Origin: Hypanus sabinus | Lineage: Eukaryota | DNA length: 64,000 bases | Reading direction: 5' to 3' | NCBI RefSeq assembly: GCF_030144855.1 | Contig: NC_082713.1 | Span: 134,602,001-134,666,000, forward strand | Shown: piece by piece, positions 4,911-26,268 of the stretch | How positions within the stretch are numbered: position 1 is the first letter of the stretch | How the letters are laid out: every line of letters begins with the position of its first letter | Notes under the pieces: generated by a model | Database searches by the model: none | What the model was told of the DNA's origin: nothing | What the model saw: only the letters and a program-made list of their open reading frames with translations | Position numbers and translations under genes: made by a program

Positions 4911-6096
4911 CAGACCTTAGCAACATTGGCACAGTGACAAGATTAATATAATTCTCTATGAGTTATTCTGATGTAACATCCACACTGTAACTACAGTACT
5001 TCATTAGCTGACAGATCCTTCTCCTTTGAGAGATTTGCAGAGCAATAATAGGTCAACTTATCCAATAATTTAAAAAGCACATGTGAATCAGATGATTCAG
5101 TCAGTCGAATTAAGTCTAAGCAATTATAAATAATTTATAGGCAGATTTCATATTGTGCTTAAATTAGCTTGGAAATTAAAATAAAATATTTGATTAAAGA
5201 GCAATGACCATGTAACAGATAAAGCAGGAGCATATAAGCAAGAACTTATATGGAGTACAGTAAAATGATAATCACACTGAAAAGCTGCATGTCTCCTTTG
5301 TTTTATACAGAAAAGATACTCATTACCTGCGACAAAGTGCAACCAATAGATGCTGATTATTCCGGACACGTGATTTTGGCTTCAAATTAGACCAAAATTT
5401 AGTAAATTGAGTAACTTCTGTCACCTATGGTCTGATGTCTCTTCAGCTTCATCAGACTTCAGGTAATAGGAGATTGTAATGGAATTCCTGTGATTACTTT
5501 GCATGCATTTACCAGATAACATTTGAACCGCTTGATCTTCTGAATGGAAATAAGTCATGCTTAAAATTTAATCCCACAATAAGTTTCATTACACTCTTAA
5601 TAAATCCACTTCTGTGGGAAAGGAGCAGGAGGGAATAGCAATCCTATGTTGCATGAAAATTCTCAAATAGAAGTATCATTCAGCCCCTTGAGTCTGATCC
5701 CGAGCACAAACAAACTTCACTTCAATCACTTCATCTTCTTGCTTTGTTGTTTACTGAAACCGCCTGCACTGACATCATCCACACTGCTGATTAACTACAG
5801 TATATTATTCTGAGGCACCGGGCATAATCTTGCACAAGATTATGAAAAACATTTTATTTATAATAGGAATTTTGACGCAAAGGAATGCTATCAGTTATCT
5901 GGCTGTCCACTTCCCATTAAAAATATACTATCCACATTAATGTTTATTCCTGACTCTGGTGACCATGATCCAAATCAGAATCAGATTTAATATCACCGGT
6001 AGAAGCAATCAAATTTCATAACTTTACACCAACAGTACAATGAAATACATGATATATAAATATAGTGAAAAAACTGACCTACGTTCAGTATGTGCT

Positions 6097-6108
6097 TGTG
6101 TGTGTGTG

Positions 6109-6179
<71 letters not shown>
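6097..6179. repeat. Compound microsatellite (TG)n(TA)n(GA)n
   Basis: Directly visible. Confidence 0.95.
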
Positions 6180-6182
<3 letters not shown>

Positions 6183-6355
6183 GTTAAGTTAAAATAGTAC
6201 TGCCAAAACAGGAATTAAAAAGCAGTGAGGTAGTGCTCATGGGTTCGATGTCCATACAGAAATCGGATGGCAGAGGAGAAGTAGCTGTTCCTGAATCACT
6301 GAGTGTGTGCTTTCAGGCTTCTGTACCTCTTTCCCAATGGTAGCAGTGTGAAGAA

Positions 6356-6688
6356 GGTATAGATAGAGTGAATGCAAGCAGGCTTTTTGCACTGAGGCTA
6401 GGGGAGAAAAAAACCAGAGGACATGGGTTAAGGGTGAAGGGGGAAAAGTTTAAAGGGAACATGGGGGGGGGGGAATTCTTCACACGGAGAGTGCTGGGAG
6501 TGTGGAATGAGCTGCCAGATGAAGTAGTAAGTCCAGGCTCACTTTTAACATTTAGGAAAAACTTGGACAGGTACATGGATGAGAGGTGTATGGAGGGATA
6601 TGGTGCAGGTGCAGGTCAGAAAAATGGTTCAGCACAGCCAAGAAGGGCCAAAAGACCTGTTTTTGTGCTGTAATGTTCTATGGTTCTA
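6356..6688 (+). mobile_element. CR1 3' fragment nested in the Rex element
   Basis: ORF 6368-6673 TRGHGLRVKGEKFKGN..FFTRRVLGVWNELP; tail gttctatggttcta; splits Rex at gaagaagg|catcc. Confidence 0.85.
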
Positions 6689-7176
6689 CATCCTTGGTGG
6701 TGGGGATCTTTAACGTTGGACACTGCCTTCCTAACACACTGCTCCTTGAAGATATCTTGGATATTATGGAAGCTGGTACCCATGATGGAGGTGACTAATA
6801 CAGGGTTCTGCAACTTATTTCGAACTTGTGCAGTATCACAATGATGAATGGAGAGATTAGCAGAGTTCTTGGCTTGTGTCAGAAAAATCAGCGGAATATG
6901 GACATATTTCTGGATACTGAGCATCACTATTTAGCTTCGGATTCAATTGTTTTCCTTAATTTTCCTTTAATTAAAATGAAGATTATCTCCCTAACTGCAA
7001 AGTTTCAAATTTATACCAATCAGAATCAGATTTAATATCACTTGACCTATGTTGTCAAGTGTATTGTTTTGTGGCAGCAGTACAGTGCAATACATAAAAA
7101 ATTATCAATCACAATATGAAATATGCATTTTAAAAAATCAAATAAATAGCTCAAAAAGAACAAAATATAGTAAGGT

Positions 7177-10100
7177 AGTTGTGCATTTAATATTTCCGTA
7201 ATATTGTAAAGATGTTATTTAAATAATTATTTTTGTTTTTTTAAATAATGCAAAAAATGTAAAAGTACATCAACAGCACACGTCATCATGGTATCACATC
7301 ATAAGTGCATGCCTCACCAAAGGTAAAAACAAAACTAGATGTGTTATCTCTGGGCTCCCATCTTTTTCTTTCAATTAATTTTATGTTTTGATATTACAAA
7401 ACATAACTGTGGCAACAAGTAAGTTTTCAAATGAACTTAAGACAATTAACTGTCTGCTGAAGGGCAGCAAGACAAGCATGTGCTTGTTGCAGAAGGTAAA
7501 GACCTGGTCGAGTTTAAAAAGAAAGGAAGAAAATGGGAGTCTCCTAAGTCCCTCTGCACCTCTGATGTTTGAACCTTCTCCACATTTAGATAATAATCTG
7601 CACTATTGTTTCTTTTACCAAAAAGCATTATCATACATTTCCGAACACTGTATTCCATCAGCTACGTTCTTTGCCCTGTTCTCTAATATGTCTAAGTCCT
7701 GCTGCAATCACATTGCTTGCTCAGCACCACCTACCCCTTCACCTATCTTTGTATCATCTGTAAATTTTTGAGACAAAGCCCACTAATTCCATTATCCAAA
7801 TCACTGACAAACAATGTGAAATGTAGCAGTCCCAATACTTGAGGAGCACGACTAGTCACTGGCAGCCAACCAGAAAAGGCCCCTTTTATTCTTACTCACT
7901 ATCCCTTGCCTATCAACCACTCCTCTATCCATGCCAGTATCTTTCCTGTAATATTTTATGATTTCATTTTGTTAAGCAGCCTCATGCATGGCACCTTATC
8001 AAATGTCTTCTGATAAATCCAAGTAAATGACATCTACTGCCTCTCCTTTGGCCACCCTACTTGCTACTTCCACAAAGAACTCTAACAGATTTGTCAGGCA
8101 AGATTTCCCTTTACAGAAACCATGCTGAATTTGACTTATTTTATTAATAGCCTCCAAGTACCCTGAAACCTCATCCTTGATAATACACTCCAACATTTTT
8201 CCAACCGTTAAGGATAGGCTAACTGGTCAATAATTTTCTTTCTTTTTCCTTTCTCCCTTCTTAAAGAGCGGAGTGACGTTTGCAATCTTCCAGTCCCCAG
8301 GGACCATGACAGAATCAAGTGATTCTTGGAAGATCACGACTAATGCGTCCGTTATCTCTTCAGCAACCTCTCATAGACTCTGGGATGTAGTCCAACTGGT
8401 CCAGGTGACTTATCCACCTTAAGACCTTAGAGTCTGCCTAGCACTTTTTCCTTTGTAACAGTAATGGCACTCACTCCTGCTCCCTGACATTCACGGACCT
8501 TTGGCACACTGCTGGTGTCTTCCTCAGTGAAGACTGATGCAAAGTGCCCATTAAATTTATCTGCCATTTCTTTGTCTTCCATTACTACCTCATTTTCCAA
8601 TGTTTTTTACCCTTGCAGTTTCTTAACTCCACGTACAGAGATTCAACATTCTCTGAGCCTATGTCACTTCTTTCTAAAGATGTAATTCCATCTTTTACCA
8701 ATAGAGCTACATCACTGCCTATACCTTTCCTGCCTGTCCTTTCAATACGTACAAAGTATATCCTTTGATCTTAAGCTCCCAACAATGGTCTTCCTTCAGC
8801 CACGAATCAGTGATGACCATAACATCATACCGACCGATCTCTAATAGCACCATGAGTTTGTCCACCTTCTTCCAAATGCTATGCTCATTTACATACAGCA
8901 CCTTCAGTCCTTCATTCTTCGTCCTTTTGAAGTTTGCCTCTGAGGTAAAATTTAATTCTGCTCTCTCTGCATTTATACCCAATTATTGGCTTGTTCTTCC
9001 TTACATTCATGTTACACCAATCATCTACTTGTAAACCTGTTGGCTCATTCTCAGCTCTATCATACTGGTTCCCATCCCCCTGCTCTATTAGTTTAAACCA
9101 CTCCCAACAGCTCTAGTAAACCTGCCTGCAAAAATATTGATCCCCCTCTGTTTCAAATGAAACCAGTCCCTTTTCTACATGTCACACCTGCTCCAGAAGA
9201 GGTCCCAGTTATCCAAATATCTGAATCCCTGCTTCTGCACCAATTCTTCAGCCACGCATTTACCAGCCACCTCATTCTATACCTGTCCTCATTGTTGTGT
9301 GGCACAGGCTGCAATCCCAAGATTACTATCCTTGAGCTCCTGCTTCTCAACTCCCTTCCTAAATCTCTGTATTCTTTTTTCAGGACCTCCTCCTTTTTTC
9401 CTGCCTTTGTCGTTGGTACCAATATGTACCACAATTTTTGGCTGCTCACCTTCCCTTTTCAGGATAATGTGGATGTGTTCAGAAAAATTGTGGACCTTGG
9501 CACCTGGGAGGCAAACTACCATCCATGTTTCTTTTTTGCGTCCACATAATTGCTTATCTGTCCCCCTAACTACAGGGTCCCCTATCACTGCTGCCACCCA
9601 CTTCAGTTCCCTACCCTTCTGAGCCATAGGGCCAGACTAAGGTACGGCATCACCCCACCCAACACTACTCAAAATGGAGTACTTCTTGATGAGGGGGACC
9701 AGCCATAGGGGTGCTCTCCGCTATCTGATATTCTCCCTTTCCTCTCCTGGGCAGCTATTGTTGTTTGCACAATGCTTTAGATTTCATAAGCAGAATCTAA
9801 AGGAAGGGGAGACCATTTTAGCGTAAGCAGCCTAATTGAAGAGATTGTCTGAGCATTGTCAATGCACTGATGGGCGTAATGATATACTGAGAGATTGCTT
9901 AGTTTGTGAAATCTTACAGGAAAGCTGTCAAAAAATGGCTCCCAACTGAAGCACAACTATCATCATAATAGCAATTGAAATCACTATGTCAATGGAAACA
10001 GCAGACAGAGGTGAAATTGAGTTACAGTCAGGTATGAAAATGAGCCTGAACAAAATTGTAGTGTCTAGACAGAGGCCAACCTGGCTGAACAATTTGTCTT

Positions 10101-12916
10101 ACCTTTGTGGCGGGGGCTCACATACCCCAGAGCAGTGCAGATTTAAAGGTGAAACTTGCAGAAAATGCAAAAAAAGTAGGGCACGCACAAAGAGCACACC
10201 AGCCAGTCAAAAATAAATGGACTGCAAAGATTAAAAAAAAGTCAAGTTAGAGTTTCAAAGGGAGTGGTAATTTGCATACTATTAATGAAAAATCTGATTT
10301 TTGATGCGAGTGAGATACAAAAAACCTCAAGTAGCCTTGAGATTTATCTTTTGAAAATTAACAATAGACAAGCAATATAGTTGGCACCGGAAATGAACAG
10401 CAAATTAATTAAAATGGAATTGGACACAGGCTTGGTTATTTCAGTCAGTCCATAAAATGAGTTTGAATGACATTTCAAAGATACTGAACTGAAGCCTGCA
10501 GATATCTGACTAAGAACTTTTACTGGAGAAAAGATAACTCCTGCAGCAATAACATTTGTAATGGTGAAGTACAACAACCAACAAGCCACACTGGGCTAGT
10601 ATGTGGGAAAGAAACAGAAGCAGCAGCATTGTGGGCTGTGATTGGCTGAGGCAGCTACAACTTGATTGGCGATCCATCCACCCTTTGTATGCCACATCCC
10701 CTGCAATAGAGTCAACTGAAACCAAATTAAGAAAGGTACTGAATGAAGCCACAGCAGTGTTCAGGGATGGCATTGGAAAACTCAAACATATCAAGGGTGT
10801 TAAATGGAAATGCCACACCCAAGTTTTTCAAAGCCCTTATACCCTCTGTGATAGCGTAGCCAATCAGCTTGATTGCATGGAGGCTGAAGGAATCCTTTCC
10901 AAGGTTAAATGGAGCCCAAGGACAATGTCAGTGGTCCTAGTAGCCAAGAAGAATGTGTCTGTCAGGATCTGTGGTAAAAGTGGATCAATACACCCTGCCC
11001 AGTACAGATGCAAGAAAAAGCTATAGCAAAGTGGACTTAGCTGAGGGAGGTTTACGTACAGATGGAAATGGAAGAAGAGGGTAAAATGTTTTTCACCATA
11101 AACACTCACCAGAGGACATTATCACCGTAATAGGAGAAGCATCTGCACCTGCACTCTGGCAGAAAGCTGTGGACCAGGTGCTACAAGGCTGCCCAGGTTA
11201 TCAGTGTTTCCTAAATGACATTATTGTTACCAGTGAGGATGACAAGGAACATCTCCCAAATCTCAAGATAATGTTAAAAAGATTGTAAGATTATCAGGCA
11301 GAGCATGATGCAACAAGTGTAAATTCTTTAAACCATGCATCCCTTACTGCAGTCACTCTATTTGTACAAGTGTGCTGAGAAAATTCAAGCAGTGGTGGAT
11401 GATCCAAGGTCAAAGGATGTGTCAGAGTTGCAGTCCTTTATAGTATTTGTCAAATACCTGCCAAACCTGGTTAATATGCTCCACCCATAGAACTTATTAC
11501 TCCAGATCAGGAGGAAAAGCAGTGTGTGGTGACTTTCAATGAGGTGAAGGGAAGTGTGAAGTCACACATTATGATCCATATCATCCAGAGAAGTTTCCCT
11601 GTGACACCTTGCCTTACGGCATAGGTGCAATCAGGTCTCACGTTATGAGTGATGGAAGTGAATGCCCCATAGCTTCTGCATCACATTCCCGTTCAGCTGC
11701 AGGGAACATTTACGCACAGATTAATGGAGTGGTGTTGAGTCTTGTTTGGGGTATAAAACATTTCAACCAGTAGTTGTATGGCACAGAGTTTACCCTCATT
11801 ACTGACAATCAACCACTACTGTCTATTTTCGATCTACAGAAGGATGTTCCACTAACATCAACAGAATGAATGCAGAGATGGACTCTGTTTCTTGGAGGAT
11901 GTAATTACAAGACTGAATTAAAGAGGATGTTTAATCATGGAAATGCTGATGGATTGTCACATTTACACTTAGAAAAGGAAATACCTGAAAAATTTACAAA
12001 AGAAGACACTCGTATTAAGGTATTCTCCACAATGTAAATCAAAAGTCTTACTATTACAGCAGAGATGATCGAAAGAGAAATCAGAAGAGACTCGTCAGTG
12101 GCTCAGGTCTACATCAAATGTATAGCAGAAACTCCAGTTCCCCCATTTTTACCAGGGCTGTGATGAACTTGCCCTTAACAGGGATTACCTTATGTGGGGA
12201 TTGAAGCTGTTGTCTAAGCTGAGAACTAAAGTGTTGGAGGAACTATATGCCAGTCATGTAGGTGTGGTCAAAATGAAAGCTTGGCTCAAAGTTTTATCTG
12301 GTGGCCTGGGATAGAACAGCAGATCAAGCAGCTTTCCATGCACTGTTTTGATGCCAACATGTTTAGAATAAAGATGTCCAGAGTGGTCAGAAGCACATCC
12401 TGTAGTACCAGAGTCAATTCCTACAACCACCACGGAGGAGGCCCCAGAACATGAGATCGTTTCACAGCCACATCACACCCGCCAAGCAGGAAGGACAATA
12501 TCCCACAAGATTAAGAAATCCTCCACGGAGATTATATCTTTAGGCTTGAAAGAGACAATTTATAATTTGTTATGTTGTGGATATCTATATATAGTTGTAG
12601 TATATATTAAACTAAATTGTGTATATCGTTGAGATGGCTTCTACATTGAGATGGAGATATAGCTAAACATGGAGGTGTGTTGTGTTTTTAATATTTCAAA
12701 AATATTTGAGTAATTTCAAATATATTGCTTAATTATTCTTTGTTGCTTACATAATGTATTGCAGGTTATATGTAAAAGTATGTGAATAGCATACGTTATC
12801 ACTCTACCACATCAAAGGTGCATACCTCACCAAAAGTAAAAACAAAACTAGACACATTGTCTCTAGGCTCCCATCTTTTTCTTTCAATTACTTTTATATA
12901 TTGGAGTTACAAAACA
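7177..12916 (+). mobile_element. Mag-clade-like Ty3/Gypsy LTR retrotransposon, decayed (copy 1)
   Basis: 5' LTR about 7177-7403 and 3' LTR 12678-12916, both ending ttacaaaaca. PBS-like tggcaacaag at 7410. gag with CCHC remnants (9986-10216), protease atggaattggacacaggc (MELDTG, about 10413), RT and RNaseH remnants, integrase Zn finger. Integrase core is deleted near 12365. Confidence 0.9.
7536..9748 (-). mobile_element. CR1 LINE (ORF1 esterase, APE N-terminus, RT pieces) nested in Gypsy copy 1
   Basis: ORFs 9289-9627 and 9153-9449 (VIGDPVVRGTD..VCLPGAKV, HIGTND; SGNH-type ORF1), 8719-8982 (LKVLYVN) and 7999-8196 (QHGFCKGKSCLTNLLEFF). 3' end is missing. Confidence 0.9.
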
Positions 12917-14114
12917 GAGCAGTTGTGTTCATGGGTTGGTTCATTGTCTGTACCAAAATCTATTGGTAGAGGGGAAGAAGCTGTTCTTAAAATATTGAGT
13001 GTGTGTCTTCAGGCTCTGGTGCCTTCTCCTTGATAGTAGCAATCAGAAGAGGGCGTATCCTGGGTGATGGGGATCCTTAATAATAGATGCAGCCTTTTTG
13101 AGGCATTGCCTTTTGAAGATATCTTCAATGTTGAGAAGGCTAGTGTCCATGATGGAGATGGCTACATTTAAAACCCTCTTCAGATTTTTCTGATCCTGCA
13201 CAGTGACCCCTCCATACCAGATGGTGATGCAACCAGTTAAAATGCTCTGCAGAGTTTGTCTGTAGAAATTCACTAGGATCTTTGGTAACATTCCAAAACT
13301 CCTCGAACTATAGCCTCAGAAGGGCCTTCTTTGTCATTGCATCATTATCTGCCCCAGAATAGATCCTCAGACATGATGACACCCTGGGACTTGAAACTGC
13401 TCACCCTTTCCACACCTGATGCCTTGACGAGGACTGGTACGTTATCCCTCGACTTCCCCTTTCTGAAATCCACAATCAGTTCTTTGGCCTTACTGATGCA
13501 GAGTGCAAGGTTGTTGCTGTGATACCACTCACCCAGCTGATCTACCTTGCTCCTGTATGCTTCCTTGTCACCATCTGAGTTTCTATCAGCAATAGTTGTG
13601 TCATCAGCAAATTTATAGATGGATTTTGAGTTGTGCCTAGCCAGACAGTTGGGGTGTAGAGAGAGTAGAGCAATGGGCTGAACACACATCCTTGAGCTGT
13701 ACCGGTGTGATTTCAGCAATAAATCAATATACCAAAATAGCCCTTTAACTGTGTTTTTACTTTTCATTCAGTATAGTTTATTGTTCTTTACAAGCCTTTG
13801 AAAATTCAGGTTTATGTTCTCTCTGTCTTCAAATCTGCGAGGTCAGAAGTGGCATCATCCCAGCCAATATGAACTTACTAGATTTATTGTGAAAACAACC
13901 CTAGTTGGACACTACATGTAGTGAATTGAAATCCTCAGACTAAAGTTGCTTGTTCCTCCAAAAGTCTGCAAGGATCTCAATGCATCATTAGCCAGTACCA
14001 TTAGTGGAAGTACCTTCATGCTCCCTGCTTATGATAATGATTTCACGCTCCACCTAACCACTGGCTGGGTGCATCCACAATGGGTAATAGCACCAGCAAC
14101 CAGCTTTAATTCAT

Positions 14115-14995
14115 CCAAATTCAAGTTTATTGTCACAGGCATATACACCCAGGATTGAAATGACATGTAAATCAGCTTTTTGTCATCAAAGAATGCTACA
14201 AGTAGCTTGCTCTCCGTATCATACTGCTCAGGCTTGGCTATCTAGACAGCTAGGACGCAACATGCTCAACCCTGACTGACAGGCACATGCTTTGCTACAA
14301 ACATAAATTAATATAAATTTTACATAACATATGACAAAATAAACAAAGATAACCAAGCTTAGTGAAAGCTGAGAGAATGAGAAAAGAAATGTACTATGAG
14401 GGAGTAGTAGGCCTTTTCAGGTCAGTTCAAGAACAAAATGGCAGTGGGGAAGGAGTTGTTTTTAAACCTTGAGATGTGGGTCCTCAAGCAGCATTGAGAA
14501 GAGTGTATAGCCCAGATGGTGGATGTCATCCTCCTGTGACATTGTCTCTTATAGACGTCCTTTATGTTAGAGAGAGCTGTACCTGGGATGGAAATGACCG
14601 AGTCCAGTACCTTCTACAGCTTCTCGCTTTCTTGTACATTGGAGATTCCATACCAGGCAATGATGCAGCCAGTCCGAATGCTTTCCACAGTACATCTGTA
14701 GAAGTTTGTCAGAGTCTTTATTGATATATCGAAGTTCCTTAACCTTCTAAGGAAGTAGAAAGGCTTGCAAGCCTTCTTAACGGTTGCATCTACATGCTGG
14801 GACCAGATGGATCCTTCAAGATGTTGACAATCTGGAGCTTGAGGCTGCTCACCCTTTTCACCATGGACTGTTCAATGAGGACAGGTCTTTGTTCAGCTGA
14901 CATCCCCTTCCTAAAATTCATAACCAGTTCTTGGTTTTGCTGATTCTGAACGCAAAGGTGTTGTAGTTATGATGCCACTCAGTCAGCTGACCGGC
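14115..14995 (-). mobile_element. Rex1/Babar-like 3' fragment
   Basis: aattcaagtttattgtcac tail; ccataccaggcaatgatgcagccagtc and ctgtagaagtttgtcag motifs. Confidence 0.7.
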
Positions 14996-15906
14996 TTGTT
15001 TGTGTTGTTTCAAGACAATCTGCACGGTTAAGGTGCATTCTAGTTGGAGAAGGATTTGACAGTCATTCCAAAGTCTGAATTTGATCTGGGAAATCGCCAT
15101 GGTGTGGAAAAGAATGGATGCCAAGAGTTAAGAATACATCACAGACCTTGCAGGTGAGGCAGCGGAACTTGTTCTTTCTCCAGTGTGCGAAGACACCTTT
15201 CTGGTGATCAAAAGGCAGAGAGAGATGATGGCTGTGGAGAAAGATGCCATCAATTAATCCCCAAAGATCTGAATGCAGAGCCAAAGGAATGGCATGTTCT
15301 ATCAACGATTATATATTACTGAGCACTAATTACTCTAACAGCCTTCTAACCTTCCCTCAGTCAGAATTCATTATTCAACCTTCAAAGACTCAATATCACT
15401 GTAAGCCCTCATATATATCTCACAGTTGATGGCTTAAAGTTTCCTTCTGTCTCTGGACACAGATTTTCCCATTTCGTTAGCCCTCCAGTAGACAAAACCT
15501 GGATTCTGGCCAAACTGTGAAGGAGAAGCAAGAAGACATTGACATTCATAGCCATCAGTGCAGGTGTGAAATGTTGGTCTGTATAGCATAGAATGTGCCT
15601 GATACATACCAGCTGTATACTTAGAGAGAGAGACTAATTTCAGATTCAGGACAGTACAGTGTTGAAGAGCAAGGTTTTGACCATGCAATCATTGCTGAAG
15701 CCTGCAATCCCAGCAAAGCTGTGGAGCTGTTGTTTCCTACTGTTCTCTGGCAAATGTCCACAGTAACACCACAATGGGCAGTAAACTAATTGCAGATATC
15801 CCCAGCTCCATCCAATGTACCAGACACAAAGTTCAAAGCCCTAGCCACCTTACTAATCATAGTTGATGCAAATCCTGCACTATTCTCAGGAGCTAGTAGT
15901 GGCACC

Positions 15907-17178
15907 TTTCTTTTCCAATATTTTTATTAATTTACATATAAGAATACAGAGTTCAAGAAAAAAATACATCAATACAATATACTAAATCGCATATAGAGTC
16001 CTTACCCTATATTCATACAGATTAACTAATTCATAACATTGAAATATAGTAATGTTATTATATAAAAAAGAAATCTAACGCACTACCAAGACCGAAGCTG
16101 ATTAGTAAAGAAAAAAAGGGAAAAAAATTAGTCATTATCTGTGCTTTAACAGCAAATCAAAGGTTTTGAAAATAATTCAGAAAAGGTCCCCATAATGTTT
16201 GAAAGTCTTGACCAGATTCAGAGATTGAACATCGAATCTTCTCTAAATTTAAACATGACATCACATCACGTAATGAGGGGCCGCATCTTTCCATTTAAGC
16301 AAGAGCCTCCTTCCGGCCATGAGAGAAATAAAAGCCAAAATGTGCAAGTCAGATGACTCCAAAATAATATCCTTTCCTCCAACGATACCAAATAAAGTGG
16401 TCAAAGGATTAGGCTTAAAGTTTACTTTGAAAAGTATTGAGAAAGTTTGAAATACTTCTTTCCAATATTTTCTAAGACTAAGACATGTCCAAAACATATG
16501 AATGAGTGAACCTTCTCCATTATTACATTTATCACTATACGGAGATATATCTAAATAAAAATCAGACAGCTTATCCTTGGGCCCTATGAACCACTTTAAA
16601 TTGTAGGAGAGAGTGGCGGGCACATAATGATGAATTGTTAACCAATTTAAAAATTTGATTCCAAATTCCAAGTTTCCTCAGATATTGAAGTCTGTATATC
16701 TTGTTCCCAAGGATTTTTAATTTTATCTAAAGGAACATTTCTCATTCCCAACATCATATTATAAATATTAGATATAGATCCATTATAAAAAGGTTTCAAA
16801 TTAAAAATTACATCTAGTAGATTCTTATCAGGACTTTTAGGAAATATACTTGAGACCATAAAAAATCTCTTATTTGTAGGTGTTGAAAAAAATGAGCTTT
16901 GGGTAAACTATATTTAGTTGACAGTTGTTCAAATGAAGAGACTTCCCTCTACAAACAAGTCCTGAAAGCATTTAATACCTAATCTATCCCATTCTTTAAA
17001 AGCCACATCAATCATAGAGGGTTTAAAAAAATAATTAGTAAAAATGTGATTCGAAAGAGAAAATCTCAATAAGCCAAGGTATTTTTGGAATTGTATCCAA
17101 ATTCTCATAGTGTGTTTAACCACCAGATTATCAGTTAACTTATTCAGGAACAAAGGAAGTGAGGATGCAAGAAGAGCA
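15907..17178 (-). mobile_element. L1-clade LINE 3' fragment
   Basis: ORFs 16929-17183, 16647-16859 and 16261-16671 (DKCNNGEGSLIHMFWTC zinc knuckle); AATAAA plus A-rich tail; possible TSD ggcaccttt / ggcaacttt (15901 and 17179). Confidence 0.85.
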
Positions 17179-19604
17179 GGCAACTTTGAATGAGGATTTC
17201 ATTACTGCAAAACAGATACTGTTTCCTGGTCCTTCAGTTTGTGGGAATTCATAGTTCAAAAAGTTCTCATCTAAGAGCTTTGTTAAATATGTTGAGATTC
17301 TGCCTCTATCTATCTCTTTCTTTCAGACCCTACCATCTCTGAGGTGAAAATAGATTTTCTTAACTTCCCTTTTACCAATTGTACTATATCCACGTTTCTT
17401 CTTGCTCTTCTTGCTTAAGAAGATAAGACACTCTCATCCATTTAGCCCTCTCATAATTTGATACACTTCAACCAAATTTCTCCAAAGAAAACAATCGCAG
17501 CTTTTATGATTTTTCTTCAGAGCCAACAGGAATTCTACCAACACCTTCTCAGGGGAAGTTCAGAATGGACAATAAACATGGCCCACCACGGTGATGCCCA
17601 TGTTCAAGAGAAGAACAGAAATCTCCACTTTTGCCAATGTCCTTGAAAATGTCTTCCTCTGACACAATAGCATTTTGGTGACTAGTACTGCTTTTAGTAA
17701 CGTATCTATGGCAGACAATGGAGATGTGCAATTGTAATGGCCACCCTGCTCAATCCATTCTGTGTGTATGCATATAAAAGTATCTTCTTTTCTTTATTTT
17801 TTCCACAGGAACCTGTGGACATGAATACCTATGTAATGGGATTTCTATACATATGAAAGATCACTTAAGCCCAGCATAACAGTAGCAAGGATCTAGACGT
17901 TCACCAACCTGCTCTGGAGACTGACAGGTGTATGTTAGGCTATGAATGCTCCTAGCCTGAGGACTTCACCTTTTCCCATCTCTTACTCGTGAGTGAAACA
18001 AGGTAAGCACATATACATTAAAGCAGCATCCAACAAGTTCACAGGTATTCATTGTTAATCACTGAAACTTGGTACTCCACGCATTATTGATGTGTCCCAG
18101 TTCTAACCTACTTTAGGATAGAGATTGCATCAAGCAACCCACTCAGGAAGTAGCACCCTGACCCTTCCCTTCCTTTGTTAAATGCCATTTTCAGCTGACA
18201 AACCATATGTCTCGTAATATAACACGCTTCGAGGCCACTAAACAGGAAACTCAGCTGCATTGGCCACTAACCAGTACCTTGTGCTGAGGTCAGAATCTGC
18301 TTGTTGGAATTCAACCAACCACTTCATTCTTTTTAACCATTTGCAGACTGTGCAGTGTTAGCCAGCAGCTTTGAGGTCTCCGGGATAAGTCAGACTGAAT
18401 TAGTGCTGCAGCCCATCCCATCTGCGTGTTGAGGCTGAGTGCACACTGATCAAACTCAATAGCAGAAGGAGTTGCACTGGTATAACACAGTTGCACTTGT
18501 CACTAAGTCAGATCACAACATATCCAAACAGTAAATAACTAAAATCCTTGGGACCTCATGTCCTTACAGTGTAATGTCTTATCCTGTTTTCCGTCTCCAG
18601 GGGCCTACTCTGCAATGACTCCCATTGAGCACCTGACCAGCTCAATGGAAGTTCGGTGAATTCTCACCTTTTCCCTCACTGTCATTCTAGATGTATGAAA
18701 GATATGTCTCATGGTTGACACTTGTATCATCTGCAAATTTCATAATCGTGCTCCCTACTTTCAAATCTGAATCAGTGAAATATCATCAAAAACAAGGGTC
18801 CTCCCAATCACTGACCCACTGAATCTTCCTCGCAAGTGGATGAAAAGTGTTAAGTGTATCTGTACATCTGTTGATTTCTCTCCCAAGTGTAGTACTTCAG
18901 AATAGAAAACATTATGTGCTGGAATTGTAATCATGATATCGGGTATGGACTTGTTGCAACAGAAATCCCACTGCAGATGTGTGGGGATGCATCGCAACTG
19001 AAACAGACTTCCTGCTAGACCAAGCATATTAATCTGTTTCAAAGCATGTAATCATAACACAGGCCCATATTTCCAAAGCTTTTAAGAATAATCTTGAGAT
19101 GCAATTGCCTTGAAATGAATAGCACTTTTCCTTACCATTAAAGGCAACATGCATGGATAATTGTTTATACCATGTGAAATAAATTCTGGTATATTCATTA
19201 CTGAATAGCTGTTCCATTTAATCATGGTTAGTGAGGTATGAATGACAGTATAAATAGCTAATTGCCTGAGTCTTATCAAATAAATTTATTTTTAATCACT
19301 ATTGCTTGGCAATGAATCCCGAGAGTGACTGATCCTCCTGTTGTGCCCACCACTTTATGCTTCTTTATGTATAATGTAAATTTAAATATGAAAAACCACT
19401 ATTTCCATAAAACACCTTTATTCAAAATTCAGTGACCATATGCTCATTGCAGGAAGCTGCAACCAAGAGCAGTGCGGTTTTAAGAACTCTCACAGCAGCC
19501 TAACTGTGACCCATCTCCTCACTGACTGCATTTCCTTCGTGGTGAAAGGAGGTGATAGATCACTGACTCCATTTTCTCAGACTTGGAGAAACCATGAGCA
19601 TGCG

Positions 19605-19760
19605 GATGAGACATAAGAGCCTGCCGATGCCGGGATTTGGAGCAAAGAAAGAGGATGCTGGAGGAATTCACCAGGAAAGCTTTGAAACGTCGACTCTCCC
19701 GTTGCCTCCACATACTGCATCACCCACTGGGTTCCTCCAGCAGCTTATTTTTTTTTTGCT
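19605..19760. mobile_element. Penelope pseudo-LTR-derived short element with inverted arms
   Basis: gatgctggaggaattcaccagg ... ctgggttcctccagcagc inverted pair; gaaacgtcgac motif similar to 36001-36011. Confidence 0.55.
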
Positions 19761-21860
19761 TTTAACATAAGGTTCATTTCTTGATATGGAGTTAGCGGCT
19801 CCAATTGCTGAAAACATGCATTGTGAAATTTGGAATTCACATCAGTGATTTTAGTTGCCATTTCCTACCCCACCTTCTCCAAGCATCCCAAGATCTCTTC
19901 AGGCCACTCTGTAGGTACATCATTTTCTCCATCCCTACCCCCATCCTATTTCAAAGGGAATAAGAATCAGGATCCAATACGTCCATATTTTAGAAAGTGG
20001 CTATGACAATATAACCACTAAATATAGGTAAAGTAATGCCCAGGGGTTCATTTGTTGGCAAGGATGATTAAATTTACTTAAAGCAAAGGTCTCATAATTT
20101 CATAAGATTAAACACTGGTTTAATTGTAGGAAAGGTACCTAAACTGCAATACCCTCCCTTTCAAACTACTAGTGTTACCACCTTCCAGTTTGTACTCCTT
20201 TCCCTGTATCCTAACTTCTTATTCTAGCTTCTTCCCTCTCAGGACTCAGCCAATTATGGACCCAGCAGAGAGAGATTAATTTCAATTGGCATTGGTCTGC
20301 CATGGACAGTCGGTTGGATGGTATGAGCAGGTTCTCCAGGAGATTCTTGCAAAAGGACTCTGGTTTTGAGCATTTGACTGAGTGTGCTGCTATGTGTTCC
20401 TAGAACTACTGGCCAGCCCTGGAACAGTACAATGGGGACCCTGAGTTTTGCCACGGGTTCTTAAATCAATGTTCTCTAGTTTTGAATTTCAACCTGCAAA
20501 GTTCCCCTTGTAGAGGAGTAAGGTGGCCTATGTAATTTCCTTCCTCTTGGGCAGGGTCCTTTCATGGACAATGGCTTTATGGACAAAGGGCACGCTCATG
20601 TGTTCTGATATAAATTAATTTCTAAGAATGTTGAGGAGGGTATTCTTTCATCCTGCCAGGGGCTCAAAGGCACCCAGCAAATTCCCTGAGCTGCGTCAAA
20701 GAGCATGACCCATGGCCAACTATTCCATTGACTTCTGTACCCTATCAGTAGAGAGTGGATGGAGCAATGCGGCTTTGGTAGCTCTGTTTAGATAGGGATT
20801 AACTGACCAATCCCTGTCATTCGTTCTTTATACCAGGGACCAGGTGGAGTATTTGGAGAAATTTACGGACACAGCCATAAGAATCGACAACTTTATTTCA
20901 GAAAGAATGAGGGAGAGATATGCCTTGTTCACCAGGAGGGTTGGTTCTCAGAACTACCCAGTACCTACTCCAATTCTTCAATCCAATAACCAATGAATAT
21001 TCCTGCAGTCATCTCTGGAAGAACCCATTCAACTTGGAAGTACCCAGGTCTCCCCAGTGGAGTTAGATGGATGTATGAGGCAGAGGTGTTGTTTATAGTA
21101 AAGTAAGGCCGGTCATTTCCAAGTCACCTGCCCCAATTTGTCAGGGAAACTCCCAGGACCATCCAGTGACGTCTCAAGGCTCTCTCCCATTACTTTGAGT
21201 CCCAGTGTGGTTTTACCATACTGAATATCTTGGGGGAGACATCAACATTCTTTAAGAGCCTTGGTAGACTCTGGTCCAGCAGGGAATCTTTTGGACATTG
21301 AATTAGTTGAATGAATCCAAATTCCCAAGGTATGCCCTGACCAGCCAATTTCTGCTATGGCCTTGGATGGTAGATCCTTTAAATCTGGACATATCTTTTA
21401 TCTTGTCGTTGCTCTCAAGTTGATAATTTGAAGGCACAAGGAGATAATTCACTCTCCAGACATTCCCCTAATCCTTGGTTATCTGTGGTTAAATCTTCAT
21501 AATCCTTGGATTTATTGGTCTGCTGGCACCATTCAGGGTTGTTTGACCCTATGCCAGGGTAAGTGCTTTCCGAGAGGTTCTCAGATGCCTGCCTGAGTTT
21601 ACACGTGATCTGCTGTGAACCACATCGAGTTATCAGTCAACTTGCTTCCTGACTCGTCAAGGCCAAATTTGAATTCAAGGGGGTGACTGGAGTGCCTCCA
21701 GAATATTCAGATTTGTTGGAAGTGTTCAGCAAGAGGAGAACCACTATGCTTCCCCCATAGAGGGACTACAATTGCACCATTAATTTACTACCTGGTATGT
21801 GTTCTCTCCAGATAAGGCTTTAAGTCTTATCTGCTCCCGAGATGTAAGCTATGGAGGAAC

Positions 21861-23890
21861 ATTCTGATAGTTGTGGAGTTTCTAATGTGGTTGGTGGCAG
21901 GGACCTTTAAGTTTACTGTCTTCCCCTGTGTGTTAGTCAGGTAACTGCAGGATGATCTCAAATGGTAACTTTCCATGGAAGGCACATAGAAGATTGAATA
22001 TTTGTTGTATAGGAACCTTGGTGCAAATGCAGTATAAGAGGCATTGGTTGAAGAAAGCAGGATTGAAAAGACATGGACATGATTTTGGAAGCTATGATGT
22101 TGTTTTGCCATCCAACATCTGTAAAGCATTGTCTTGTAAGATGGAGTCTAGAAGCAGCAAAAGGACCTCTCAGTGCATAGCAATGATAGAGTTGCCTACA
22201 AAGTTCATTCTGTTGAGTGATGCACAATTCCAAAAGGATGTGAATGGATTTGATGGGCTATCAAGTGCATTGGCCACTGTGGTCCAGTATGTGTCATTGG
22301 AAATCATAGATGGCTCCACTCAAAACTTGGCAAATGATGATTACATTATGGAATGGAGCTGATGACTGCTATGACCAATATGATTGTTTGTTCTTTGTGG
22401 CTATTAGCCAATATCATAGATAAGTGGATTATTAGCTTACTAAAAGGTTTGGCTGCTGTGAAAAAATTCAGCATTTTGATTGAAATCACGCTTTCAAACA
22501 TCAAACAAATGTTTTTAAGGCTCTTTTTCCTAGTTGTAAGAACAGGGGCACTAACTGTGTTGAACTATATGTTTTTAAGTTTCCAAACTTTCATTGGAAG
22601 CATTCCATGTGGTTGTTCCTCACATTCCCAAATTAATGATGTCACTTTCTTGAAGAAGAGAATAATCTGTTGATATCAATTGTCCAAATTGATACACTGC
22701 ATGATCTTTCAGTTTTCAGGATTCTCTGACCTATATGAACCTGACATACAAACACGGTAAGATTTTCCAATTCAAAATGAGGAAATTATAAAACAGCTGC
22801 TCAAACAAAATGCTTGATGTCAGAAAAAAATGTATAGGAACCTTTGTACTCAAGACTGTCTGCAAGATCGGATACAGAGAAGACAGGACTGGCAGATCTT
22901 GACAATGCCTACTACATGAACAGTGTCATTCAGCTCCTTTTCATGGTTTCTGGCTTCAGACATATTCAAGAAGAGAGATTCACAGTCAATAATGATGAAA
23001 CTTCAATGGTTAATTGGCTTCCTGGAGCATAGCCAGAGACTTGCCATCTCTCCCAGCAGCTTCTTGAAAGCTTCATCTCCTTTGTGGTTTAATCAAGGGG
23101 CACAACAGGACCAATCAGACTATTTAAGATATCTGTTGGATAGGCTACACGAAGAAGGGAAGATTGGTAAAGATTAGTTATGGACAAAGACATTCAGGCT
23201 GTGAACCCTGCATACAAAGCTGAGAAACATTAATAGAATAAATGGTGGGAAGAAGGGAACTAGGATCCTTTATCATTATTGTAATAATATTTCCTTCCGC
23301 GAGGAAGCTTTTCCAGATCTATCCACCACCGAACAAGATTCTACAAAGTTCTGATCATTCATGTGTCCCTAATATTTCAATGAAGATTACTAGTGCAGAT
23401 AATTTGGCAACGCAAGCTGAACAACAACACATGACTGCCAAGTCTCCAAGTAAGCAGACACTCAGTGTGGGTGGTACATGTTGAAATAATCAGTTCCCAT
23501 GAAAAAGGAATAGAAGAGACTTCAGCCTCTAGAATTAGTTGCTTGCCACAGAATGATTTTGCAGTGGCTTCCAGGGAAGAAATGTGTGACTCAGCAAGTT
23601 GTAGATCAGTTTCTGATCTCATTAACTACTTCTTTCACCAGAAATGCTGTTGAGTGATAACATACTTTGTATTGCAATAAATGTATCTCATTACCAGAAG
23701 CAGTAAATGTGGTAGAATTAACTGGAAATACACCTTACCTTGACTTTATTATAATTCTCCCTTGATCTAGCAACTATGAAGTACAGAAAGATTCTGGATA
23801 ATGCACCTGTTCCTTTAGTTCTTAAGCAACCCATCAGGATTAATTCAAAGGATGAACACAAAATTTGTGGCAAAAGTCAATGATGCAAAC
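21861..23890 (+). pseudogene. USP35: Processed (intronless) USP35 deubiquitinase retrocopy, decayed and 3'-truncated
   Basis: ATG 22073 MDMILEAMMLFCHPTSVKHCLVRWSLEAAKGPL; SSALATVVQYVSLEIIDG; IDKWIISLLKGLAAVKKFSILIE; QLSKLIHCMIFQFSGFSDLYEP; SDTEKTGLADLDNAYYMNS; KLQWLIGFLEHSQRLAISP; QQDQSDYLRYLLDRLHEE; RSVSDLINYF; RKILDNAPVPLVLKQPI. These match recalled USP35 better than USP38 (AVKKFSILIE versus AVQKFTILID). Many frameshifts and stops; catalytic Cys codon is TAC at 22910-22912; no His box and no poly(A). Confidence 0.88.
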
Positions 23891-24021
23891 TAGGAGAAAA
23901 AATGCTGGGTTCCCTCTCAGGATATTCCCGACCCTCAATTAACCATGGACTTTTATAACAGATCGCCCTGGGCCATAAGGTGCTGCCCATATGGGGTTGG
24001 TGGGGGGGGGGGGGGGAATTC

Positions 24022-24462
24022 TGTCATGAACCCTTCAAACCAGCATGGGGCGCTGGGTAGTGGCAGATCTCAATACACCTGAACATAATTTATTTGAGTT
24101 TATTACAGTTGTTGAATGACTACTGTTATCATTATGCTGTCATTGGGCTTTTTGCGATGCTTGTTACGTGAGTACAGTTTACTTATGCTTCTTGTTCATA
24201 AGTGATTTGCTCTTGATGTTGACATGCATGAGTTTCTTTTGTTTTGTCTTCTATTTATGATTTCTCTGGACCAGCGCTCAATGCTGAGCCCTGGATTTGA
24301 GTTTGTGTAAACTAGAATTCTGTGAACTCAAGTCCCAAGTAAGTGAGCTCTTAGCTTGAATATTCCCTGTATTATTCTCTGAATAAATCTTCATCGTTAA
24401 TTTCTATTGGCAAGACCTGAGTTTACTCTGCACCTGAGTCTGCCTGAATGAAGATCGTAACA
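24022..24462 (+). repeat. 3' LTR of the USP35-carrying element
   Basis: Follows the poly-G PPT; termini TGTCATGA...TCGTAACA; AATAAA at 24382-24387. Confidence 0.8.
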
Positions 24463-24520
24463 AGATCAGCCTTTGCAGACATCTGAAGATACCAACAGTA
24501 ACCGTTAGAACATCATACTT

Positions 24521-26268
24521 AATGCTATTAAAATGATGATTTTACCGAAATTTTTATATTTATTTCAAGCCTTACCAATTCTTATTCCTAAGTCTTTTTT
24601 TGATAGCATTGATTCAAAAATTTCCTCATTTGTGTGGCAAAATAAAAACCCCAGTTTAAGTAAAAGACAGTTACAGAAATCTAAAAAAGATGGTGGTTTA
24701 GCTTTACCTAATCTTAGATTTTACTATTGGGCGAATAATATTCGAAATTTAATATATTGGAAACTAGATTTGGATTCACCATTGTGCCAACAGTGGGTAA
24801 ATTTAGAATGTAATGATGCACAAGGATATTCTTTATTCTCTGTTCTTGGTTCTTCTCTCCCTGCTGATTTAGTTAAACTCAATAAACAGATATCCAACCC
24901 TATTGTCAAACATACATTACGAATTTGGTTTCAATTTCATAAGTTTTTTACTCTGAAAAACTTTGTCCTTGATAGCCCTATCTTACTTAACTTTTTTTTA
25001 AAAACCTTCTTTAACAGATCAAGCTTTTAGCATATGGAAAAGGAAAGGTATAATATGTTTTCGTGATCTTTTTTCTGAAGGTAGTTTGATGTCTTTTGAC
25101 CAACTTTCCAACAAATTTAAGTTACCTAAATCAAATTTTTTTAGATATTTCCAAATTAGAAAATTTTTATATAAAGTTTTACCATCCTTTCCCAATTCAA
25201 CTTTGATAGATTTTTCAGATATGATTTTTACTTTGAATCCCTGTCAGAAGGGATTAGTGGCTCTTATTTATAATATGATTATGAAGATTCAACCAGAGGT
25301 ATCGGGTAGAATTAAACAAGAGTGGGAAAAAGAACTTCAATACAATATATCAACAGAAAAATGGGAAAAGATTTTACAAATGGTTAATTCTTCTTCTATA
25401 TGTGCTAAACATGCTTTAATACAATTTAAGGTCGTACATAGAGCTCATATGTCTAAAGATAAGCCTGCTCGATTTTATTCTCATATTAACCCTCAATGTG
25501 ACAGATATCATTCAGATGTGGCCTCATTGACCCACATGTTTTGGTCATATCCTACCTTACATAACTATTGGAAGGACATATTTGCTACCATTTCCTCAAT
25601 TTGGAATATTGATTTACAACCTCATTTTATCACTGCAATTTTTGGTATACCAAATGAGGATGGTAGTTGACTTTCCCCTTCAATTAGACGAATGATCGTC
25701 TTTGCAACATTAATGGCCAGAAGGTCTATATTACAAAATTGGAAAGAAGTAAATCCTCCTACCACGTTTCAGTGGTTCTCTCAAACTGTCTCTTGTCTGA
25801 GCTTAGAAAAAATTAGAAGTACTATTTTCGATTCATCAATTAAATTTGAAGAAACTTGGGGACCGTTCATTCGACACTTTCATATGAATTAATTTGGCCT
25901 CTTCCAGACCTTTCCTCTTTTTATTCTTGTTCTGGTATGGAGTTCTGGAGTTTTTGACACTATCATATACGTATAAACTATTATTATTGCCCATGTTAGT
26001 TTAGGTTTATTTTTTTTATATACAGTTTTTCTTGCATTTTTATATATTTTTTTTCTTTTGATGACTATTCTTATTCTTTTTCATGTATAATCAATATAGG
26101 TTAGATTGATTATTGTACGATTTTTTTTGCTGATATTTTAATAAGATATTGTTATCTTATTACTAATTTAACTTAAAGTCTAATGTATTCATAACCTATT
26201 TAATACAATATTATGTTATATATTTTTTATATATGAAAATTAATAAAAAGATTGAAAAAGAAAGAAAG
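24521..26268 (+). mobile_element. L1-clade LINE, 5'-truncated
   Basis: ORFs 24533-25030 (ILPKFLYLFQALP, GGLALPNLRFYYWA), 25086-25670 and 25692-25892; AATAAA at 26242 plus (GAAA)n tail; 14-bp TSD agaacatcat[a/t]ctt at 24507 and 26269. Confidence 0.92.

Follow-up and report, generated by a model that had tools for sequence, protein, structure and literature searches.

The window analysed here is a stretch of 64,000 nucleotides from Hypanus sabinus (G000:C26:134,602,001-134,666,000). At 20240..24462 on its plus strand lies a long terminal repeat (LTR) retrotransposon, a chromodomain gypsy element of the Tf1/sushi-like type, in which a USP35 mRNA replaces reverse transcriptase (RT), RNase H and integrase. 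The element is most probably a dead copy of a non-autonomous family that likely arose by two template switches and then likely multiplied with the aid of helper elements, USP35 being passive cargo. The insert is spliced, microhomology is present at both joints, a single pair of joints is shared by the copies, their flanks differ, and their decay has been neutral. The USP35 family is a clear but ordinary case of the known mechanism of gene capture by LTR elements.

Element layout and the captured mRNA

The element is ordered as gag, a decayed CCHC knuckle, GGGAAAC, a DSG protease, the start of RT, 2.04 kb of USP35, half a chromodomain, a polypurine tract and an LTR. A sequence-only reading of the window had named gag, CCHC, GGGAAAC, the DSG protease and AMEE (which ends at 21860) on the plus strand, and all were present. 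The features are as follows.

20240..20250, plus strand: self-priming site in the first internal bases, with no tRNA primer-binding site (10 of 11 bases complementary to LTR positions 24283-24293)
20256..21143, plus strand: gag remnant from ATG 20256 (tblastn with fish chromovirus polyproteins P0215, E 5e-19, and P0247, E 7e-56; translation)
21090-21131, plus strand: decayed CCHC zinc knuckle (translation)
21144..21150, plus strand: GGGAAAC, likely the gag-pol frameshift site (sequence)
21151..21858, plus strand: aspartic protease remnant and RT start up to AMEE (tblastn, residues 312-510 of P0215, E 1e-25)
21267-21275, plus strand: protease DSG motif (sequence)
21855..21858, plus strand: 5' switch point, AGGA common to pol and USP35 exon 1, with a looser likeness to 21863 (alignment)
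21855..22072, plus strand: captured USP35 5' untranslated region (UTR), 218 nt, comprising part of exon 1, exon 2 and the start of exon 3 (junctions 21950/21951 and 22060/22061)
22073..23895, plus strand: captured USP35 coding sequence, isoform X3, exons 3-11, from ATG 22073 (exon alignment; ends near host residue 807)
22886-22927, plus strand: Cys box with Tyr at the catalytic position (alignment)
23893..23897, plus strand: 3' switch point, GAGGA microhomology in sister copies (alignment)
23894..23968, plus strand: C-terminal half of the integrase chromodomain (tblastn, residues 1352-1376 of P0215)
24002..24018, plus strand: polypurine tract, G-rich (sequence)
24022..24462, plus strand: 3' LTR, TG...CA, 441 nt (genome matches; borders agree across copies)

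The fish chromovirus polyprotein P0215 (1433 aa) matched the window at residues 89-510 and 1352-1376 only, so RT, RNase H and integrase are absent from the element, as had been proposed; a pol-bearing relative matched residues 437-1376. The element resumes inside the chromodomain (WVPSQDIPDP at 23906), and the polypurine tract and 3' LTR follow, again as first read. Its description as a chromovirus was borne out in the pol-bearing relatives by a gypsy-type RT (RVT_1, E 8e-21; nearest PDB entry, Ty3 RT) and by a chromodomain, which Pfam Chromo matched on two pol copies at E 1.5e-4 and 3e-3, below the curated cut-off. Fish homologues were found at 53-60%, and many carry PF00385. Pfam gave no match on the gag, protease and chromodomain pieces of the window, and PDB none on a gag piece. 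By its motif, GGGAAAC is likely the gag-pol frameshift site; an exact search for GGGAAA(C/T)T did not place it at the frameshift position in several decayed copies.

At least 40 genome matches were obtained for the LTR (best 40 of 211 candidates scored). The 5' LTR is missing from the window copy, as positions 5001-20260 gave only matches of chance size. The self-priming complementarity of 10 of 11 bases in the window copy was equalled by none of 300 shuffles. In seven of eight copies, the 11 bases that follow the 5' LTR can pair (8-10 of 11 bases) with a site lying 150-180 nt upstream of the end of the LTR; against shuffles, the pairing reached p<0.05 in three of the eight and failed in five, and the window and C27 copies reach 10/11.

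The insert is a 2.04 kb spliced USP35 mRNA that matches 11 host exons contiguously at 77-88% identity, with 10 exon-exon junctions and no introns. Its parent was found exon by exon in a genome search at G000:C17:59.655-59.687 Mb, and the translation of the 11 mapped exons equals the first 939 residues of P0003 (NCBI: USP35-like, Hypanus sabinus). This exon protein (P0001) is 100% identical to the NCBI USP35-like protein and 49-58% identical to tetrapod and bony-fish USP35 (full length), versus 42-49% to USP38; the best PDB match is USP35 (5txk, E 3e-87). The suggested identity was thus upheld, and USP38 was rejected as the parent on both counts. A likely USP38 locus, 40% identical, lies at C17:130.64 Mb; the name is ours and no tool assigned it.

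The captured coding sequence is 167 codons short because isoform X3 was captured. Missing from the insert are 501 nt between an internal GT donor in exon 3 and the native acceptor of exon 4, near 22242, and this skip corresponds exactly to the 827-aa isoform annotated in Hypanus (X3) and in Mobula hypostoma (X2). What was captured was thus a mature mRNA that had been spliced alternatively. A private deletion or an RT jump was rejected as the source of the gap, which equals the annotated isoform. The skipped part of exon 3 was covered by the parent alone (24 matches, 23/23 candidates scored). Since X3 is annotated in both rays and was already in use at capture, the isoform is old and conserved, and the insertions serve as a record of its age. 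At the parent locus, use of the internal donor (G000:C17:59,660,660-59,661,353) removes residues 61-227, within the N-terminal domain, and keeps the frame.

Captured exon 1 differs from its present counterpart in two respects. At 21875-21900 it has 23 nt that are missing from the host exon and also from copy C27, likely a loss between short direct repeats. At 21912-21941 it has a pyrimidine tract ending in CAG that resembles a splice acceptor and, judged by this resemblance, could have allowed a subgenomic RNA.

The intronless reading frame from ATG 22073 had been expected to stop short of the His box, and the capture indeed ends within exon 11, 24 codons before it (His at 831). The leader, first put at about 210 nt, was confirmed as 5' UTR and refined to 218 nt with the switch at 21855-21858. 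The His box is absent from every copy and no copy matches beyond the capture end, so the captured USP35, cut 24 codons before that box, was never an active deubiquitinase; it does not hold the catalytic triad of Cys box and His box. The C-terminal domain of USP35 is described as necessary for dimerisation and activity in the part consulted of a review (PMC13193824). To judge from its sequence, a product lacking both the His box and this domain could not be an active enzyme. The proposed capture of a deubiquitinase thus stands for the USP35 mRNA and fails for the enzyme, as no copy ever held the His box or C-terminal domain.

Switch points, spread and age

Both switch points, which the sequence-only reading had proposed to map together with any microhomology, were located by alignment to pol copies and host (for the 5' switch, 11 copies with USP35, 4 with pol and exon 1 of the host; for the 3' switch, 9 with USP35, 6 with pol and the host). 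The microhomology consists of the shared AGGA and GAGGA as aligned. About 20 nt at the 3' switch are deleted in the window copy alone. The match of pol-bearing relatives to the window runs to 21863 and resumes at 23893, and about 2.5 kb of pol has been replaced, not interrupted. Gag-pro and the chromodomain-LTR part come from one family, since pol copies match both sides of the insert and the two kinds of copy intermix in the gag-pro tree.

USP35-carrying copies were found at 11 dispersed loci on seven contigs (C26:134.6, which is the window, C26:69.5, C25, C27, C19, C1, C110 and four on C16), and C35 adds a fragment at C35:3.99 and some 20 sites within C35:42.97-43.73 Mb. These counts are lower bounds, as two of the genome searches scored only 40 candidates. 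Every copy that covers them has the same joints and the same exon-3 skip. Ten of the dispersed copies have different 3' flanks from the first base after the final CA of the LTR, and LTR sequence stands on both sides of six copies. Three loci have both outer LTR ends readable, and near-target-site duplications (5 bases) agree at 4/5 positions in two of them, C19 and C16:161. The one at C16:161 sits inside a sequence that is CR1-like by its motif and continues across it. In the C110 copy, the 3' part (USP35 end, chromodomain and LTR; 20,527,900-20,528,900) is inverted about 10 kb from the 5' part. The cargo tree is a star, and no subfamily structure was resolved among the dispersed copies.

The helper copies, which have RT, integrase and chromodomain, carry the same LTR and gag-pro as the cargo copies and are equally decayed. 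The gag-pro tree is also a star; the two kinds of copy are interspersed in it, and just 2 columns are diagnostic. The pol-bearing copies are thus a contemporaneous autonomous partner with the same cis signals. Comparison of 18 helper-family loci with a pol copy gave 17 that match pol at least partly and 1 with no match, and no other captured gene was recognised by eye among them.

A gag-pro-USP35 family mobilised in trans had been suggested. Dispersed copies with identical junctions and different flanks support mobilisation in trans, but a Gag-Pro-USP35 protein is not indicated because the captured 5' UTR holds a stop in the pol frame in 6/6 copies tested, as does the host mRNA. This intervening stop was also the ground for rejecting read-through into USP35 from pol.

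These observations suggest the following course. Isoform X3 mRNA of USP35 would have been co-packaged in an element particle, where RT may have jumped onto it at GAGGA and returned at AGGA. The chimera would have kept both LTRs, the self-priming site, gag-pro and the polypurine tract, so that RT and integrase could have come from pol-bearing relatives. At least 12-13 insertions would then have arisen in a single short burst on the stem lineage of the stingrays, and one of them was probably multiplied later by segmental duplication on C35.

The relative age was read from characters of the captured protein. A deletion of about 10 residues is common to the copies (14/14 covering it), Hypanus, Hemitrygon and Mobula, and Pristis is without it; a 4-residue stretch lost in the same three rays is kept in 11/15 copies. 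For 33 amino-acid changes on the stem common to the three rays, the copies have the new state at 23 sites, the old one at 8 and a different one at 2, and they carry none of 14 later lineage-specific changes. Since the copies show the stem changes in part and no later ones, the capture is placed by these characters late on the stingray stem, before the stingray-manta split and after the sawfish split. The terminal branches of the dispersed copies are 0.10-0.13 (10-13% from the star centre). We presume a Cretaceous date for the capture; the papers checked gave no absolute date for these nodes.

Decay of the cargo and competing explanations

All copies are dead. The window copy, read as dead from the outset, has 14 frameshifting indels, 7 stops and a Cys to Tyr change at the catalytic position, and the 11 dispersed copies with their 10 different 3' flanks, found where further and perhaps intact copies had been sought, are dead as well. 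The ratio of nonsynonymous to synonymous polymorphism (pN/pS) among singletons was 0.79, against a neutral expectation of 0.79, and variant rates were 0.112, 0.110 and 0.118 at codon positions 1-3. The copies decayed neutrally after insertion. An Asn five residues before the catalytic Cys, presumably with an oxyanion role, is invariant in 10/10 outgroups and is Asp in 8/9 copies, which fits loss of constraint. USP35 as passive cargo is the best reading of these data, and a probable one.

Several observations weigh against passive carriage in a single burst. No frameshift is common to the dispersed copies, and the stops that they share lie at CpG-type codons, so the USP35 frame was probably open during the burst. 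The frame continues in phase into the chromodomain tail. Non-CpG variants found in at least 3 copies had a lower nonsynonymous to synonymous ratio, 35:18, than singletons, 722:242, a lean towards synonymous change that was not significant (p = 0.15). LTR-pair divergence is uneven, at 0.19-0.24 in four copies and 0.09 in two, and the target-site duplication of C27 matches at only 3/5 bases. An open frame needs no selection, because it is also expected if the burst soon followed capture, and purifying selection on the cargo was not significant, with synonymous changes unpolarised. The shared stops were also considered as the mark of a dead founder and rejected: of their 5 columns, 4 fall on codons that are CGA in the host and have decayed on both strands, and in the remaining one CGA occurs among the copies.

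An unlikely alternative keeps the same origin and supposes that the cargo was translated and useful, as a USP35 fragment with a shortened HEAT region and the Cys box, lacking the His box and ending in a chromodomain tail, that would serve as an accessory protein or decoy for USP35 partners such as STING or MAVS. Human USP35 dampens STING and MAVS signalling, according to the section consulted of the review cited above (PMC13193824). Four of the seven copies tested read cleanly from USP35 into the chromodomain; C27 is in phase and then deleted, C16:80 has the same joint by alignment, and the window has its private deletion. The absence of shared frameshifts and the catalytic Cys kept in 8/12 covered copies point the same way. 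However, a joint is in phase by chance in 1 of 3 cases, the pol frame stops upstream of USP35 with no route to translation shown, and the cargo is under no significant constraint. In addition, the His box and C-terminal domain are missing, only half the chromodomain is left, and the family is small and extinct. No RNA was listed among the sequencing runs that hold the element, which is evidence neither for nor against expression. An expressed USP35 decoy is accordingly improbable, and so is its fuller form, in which a vertebrate gypsy element gained an accessory gene from a fragment of a host immune regulator: the USP35 isoform, catalytically dead but expressed and fused in phase to the chromodomain tail, would have had its frame maintained by selection while the burst lasted and would have acted on STING/MAVS or ubiquitin signalling.

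A processed pseudogene made by a long interspersed element (LINE), inserted into the element or recombined with it as DNA before the composite spread, is strongly disfavoured. In its favour, LINEs abound in the genome, and the portion consulted of a 244-genome survey (10.64898/2026.06.26.734816) attributes most non-mammalian retrocopies to them. However, no poly(A) or target-site duplication was found at the insert's ends in the window or the copy alignment, in agreement with the sequence-only reading, which had set these features, like introns (also absent), beforehand as evidence against capture. The 3' end is cut within exon 11, pol is replaced over about 2.5 kb, both insert ends lie in microhomology, and no free-standing USP35 retrocopy was found in the genome searches.

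DNA-level duplication of one locus, or junctions created by assembly, is refuted for the dispersed copies by their flanks, which differ from the first base after the LTR, and by independent sequencing runs. Words sampled from the element occur in 15 runs under 9 organism labels. Contigs bridge the 5' switch in 4/4 runs examined (four organism labels) and the 3' switch in 3/4 among the pieces listed, and in contigs of 3 runs the element adjoins the LTR-less flank that lies upstream of it in the window, one of them showing 294 differences from the window in about 3,010 letters. The window locus is therefore no assembly chimera, a fault that had been held open, and is common to several species. 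Duplication does hold for the C35 cluster (42,970,000-43,731,000, 0.76 Mb), where decayed copies without a 3' end have kilobases of common flank at up to 85-87% and frameshifts in common, and group in one clade with 100% support; these copies are thus later DNA duplicates of one insertion. Long open stretches in the parts of the cluster examined looked like transposon sequence. A LINE ORF2 of 1205 open codons follows an ORF1-like frame at G000:C35:43,181,600-43,185,200 and is probably a young insertion within the old cluster.

Related systems and neighbouring sequence

Acutely transforming retroviruses carry an oncogene captured from spliced host mRNA in place of replication genes and need a helper. 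The USP35 family resembles them in its spliced host mRNA, the replication genes replaced and the need for a helper; unlike them, it has no env or infection, no Gag fusion, a catalytically incomplete cargo and no sign of selection. PEG10 and RTL1 are relatives of the Tf1/sushi chromoviruses. The helper copies are like the vertebrate Tf1/sushi chromoviruses of the V clade, as described in the part consulted of PMC6317226, in having Gag with CCHC, protease, RT, an integrase with chromodomain, and a self-priming site in place of a tRNA primer-binding site. The USP35 branch differs in lacking RT, RNase H and integrase, and the likeness is one of domains and priming site, not of a tree with named sushi elements.

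A template-switch model has been given for LTR-mediated retrocopies of metazoans (Tan et al. 2016, PMC5131818; sections consulted). Like those retrocopies, the USP35 copies hold a partial spliced mRNA in sense orientation within a discontinuous LTR element, with microsimilarity at both switches, no poly(A) or target-site duplication, and secondary retroposition with shared switch points. Unlike the cases in those sections, the USP35 family is ancient, occurs in a cartilaginous fish and has at least 12-13 insertions. Maize Bs1, as treated there, is likewise an LTR element with captured spliced host sequence whose copies all share switch points; it holds pieces of three genes in 1-5 copies with a possible hybrid protein, whereas the USP35 family holds one gene in more copies, all dead. 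A search of 9 of the 10 supplement files of that paper gave 0 occurrences of USP35, though parents are given there by Ensembl id.

No earlier report of a USP35-carrying family was found in the literature covered; most subscription papers, Repbase/Dfam and bioRxiv supplements lay outside it, so the retrocopy tables of the 244-genome survey (10.64898/2026.06.26.734816) may list these loci. The part of that survey consulted places SUDS3 among the top retrocopy parents in cartilaginous fishes. The USP35 family provides a fully resolved vertebrate case of LTR gene capture and subsequent mobilisation in trans: its parent gene and isoform, both switch points, the helper family and the relative date are all identified. 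One capture can give dozens of apparent processed pseudogenes without any LINE, and the insertions, being older than the stingray radiation, could serve as clade markers.

Directly after the LTR, window positions 24509-25892 hold a 3' fragment of a LINE ORF2, which is L1/Tx1-like by its motifs and has very high depth in the run contigs.

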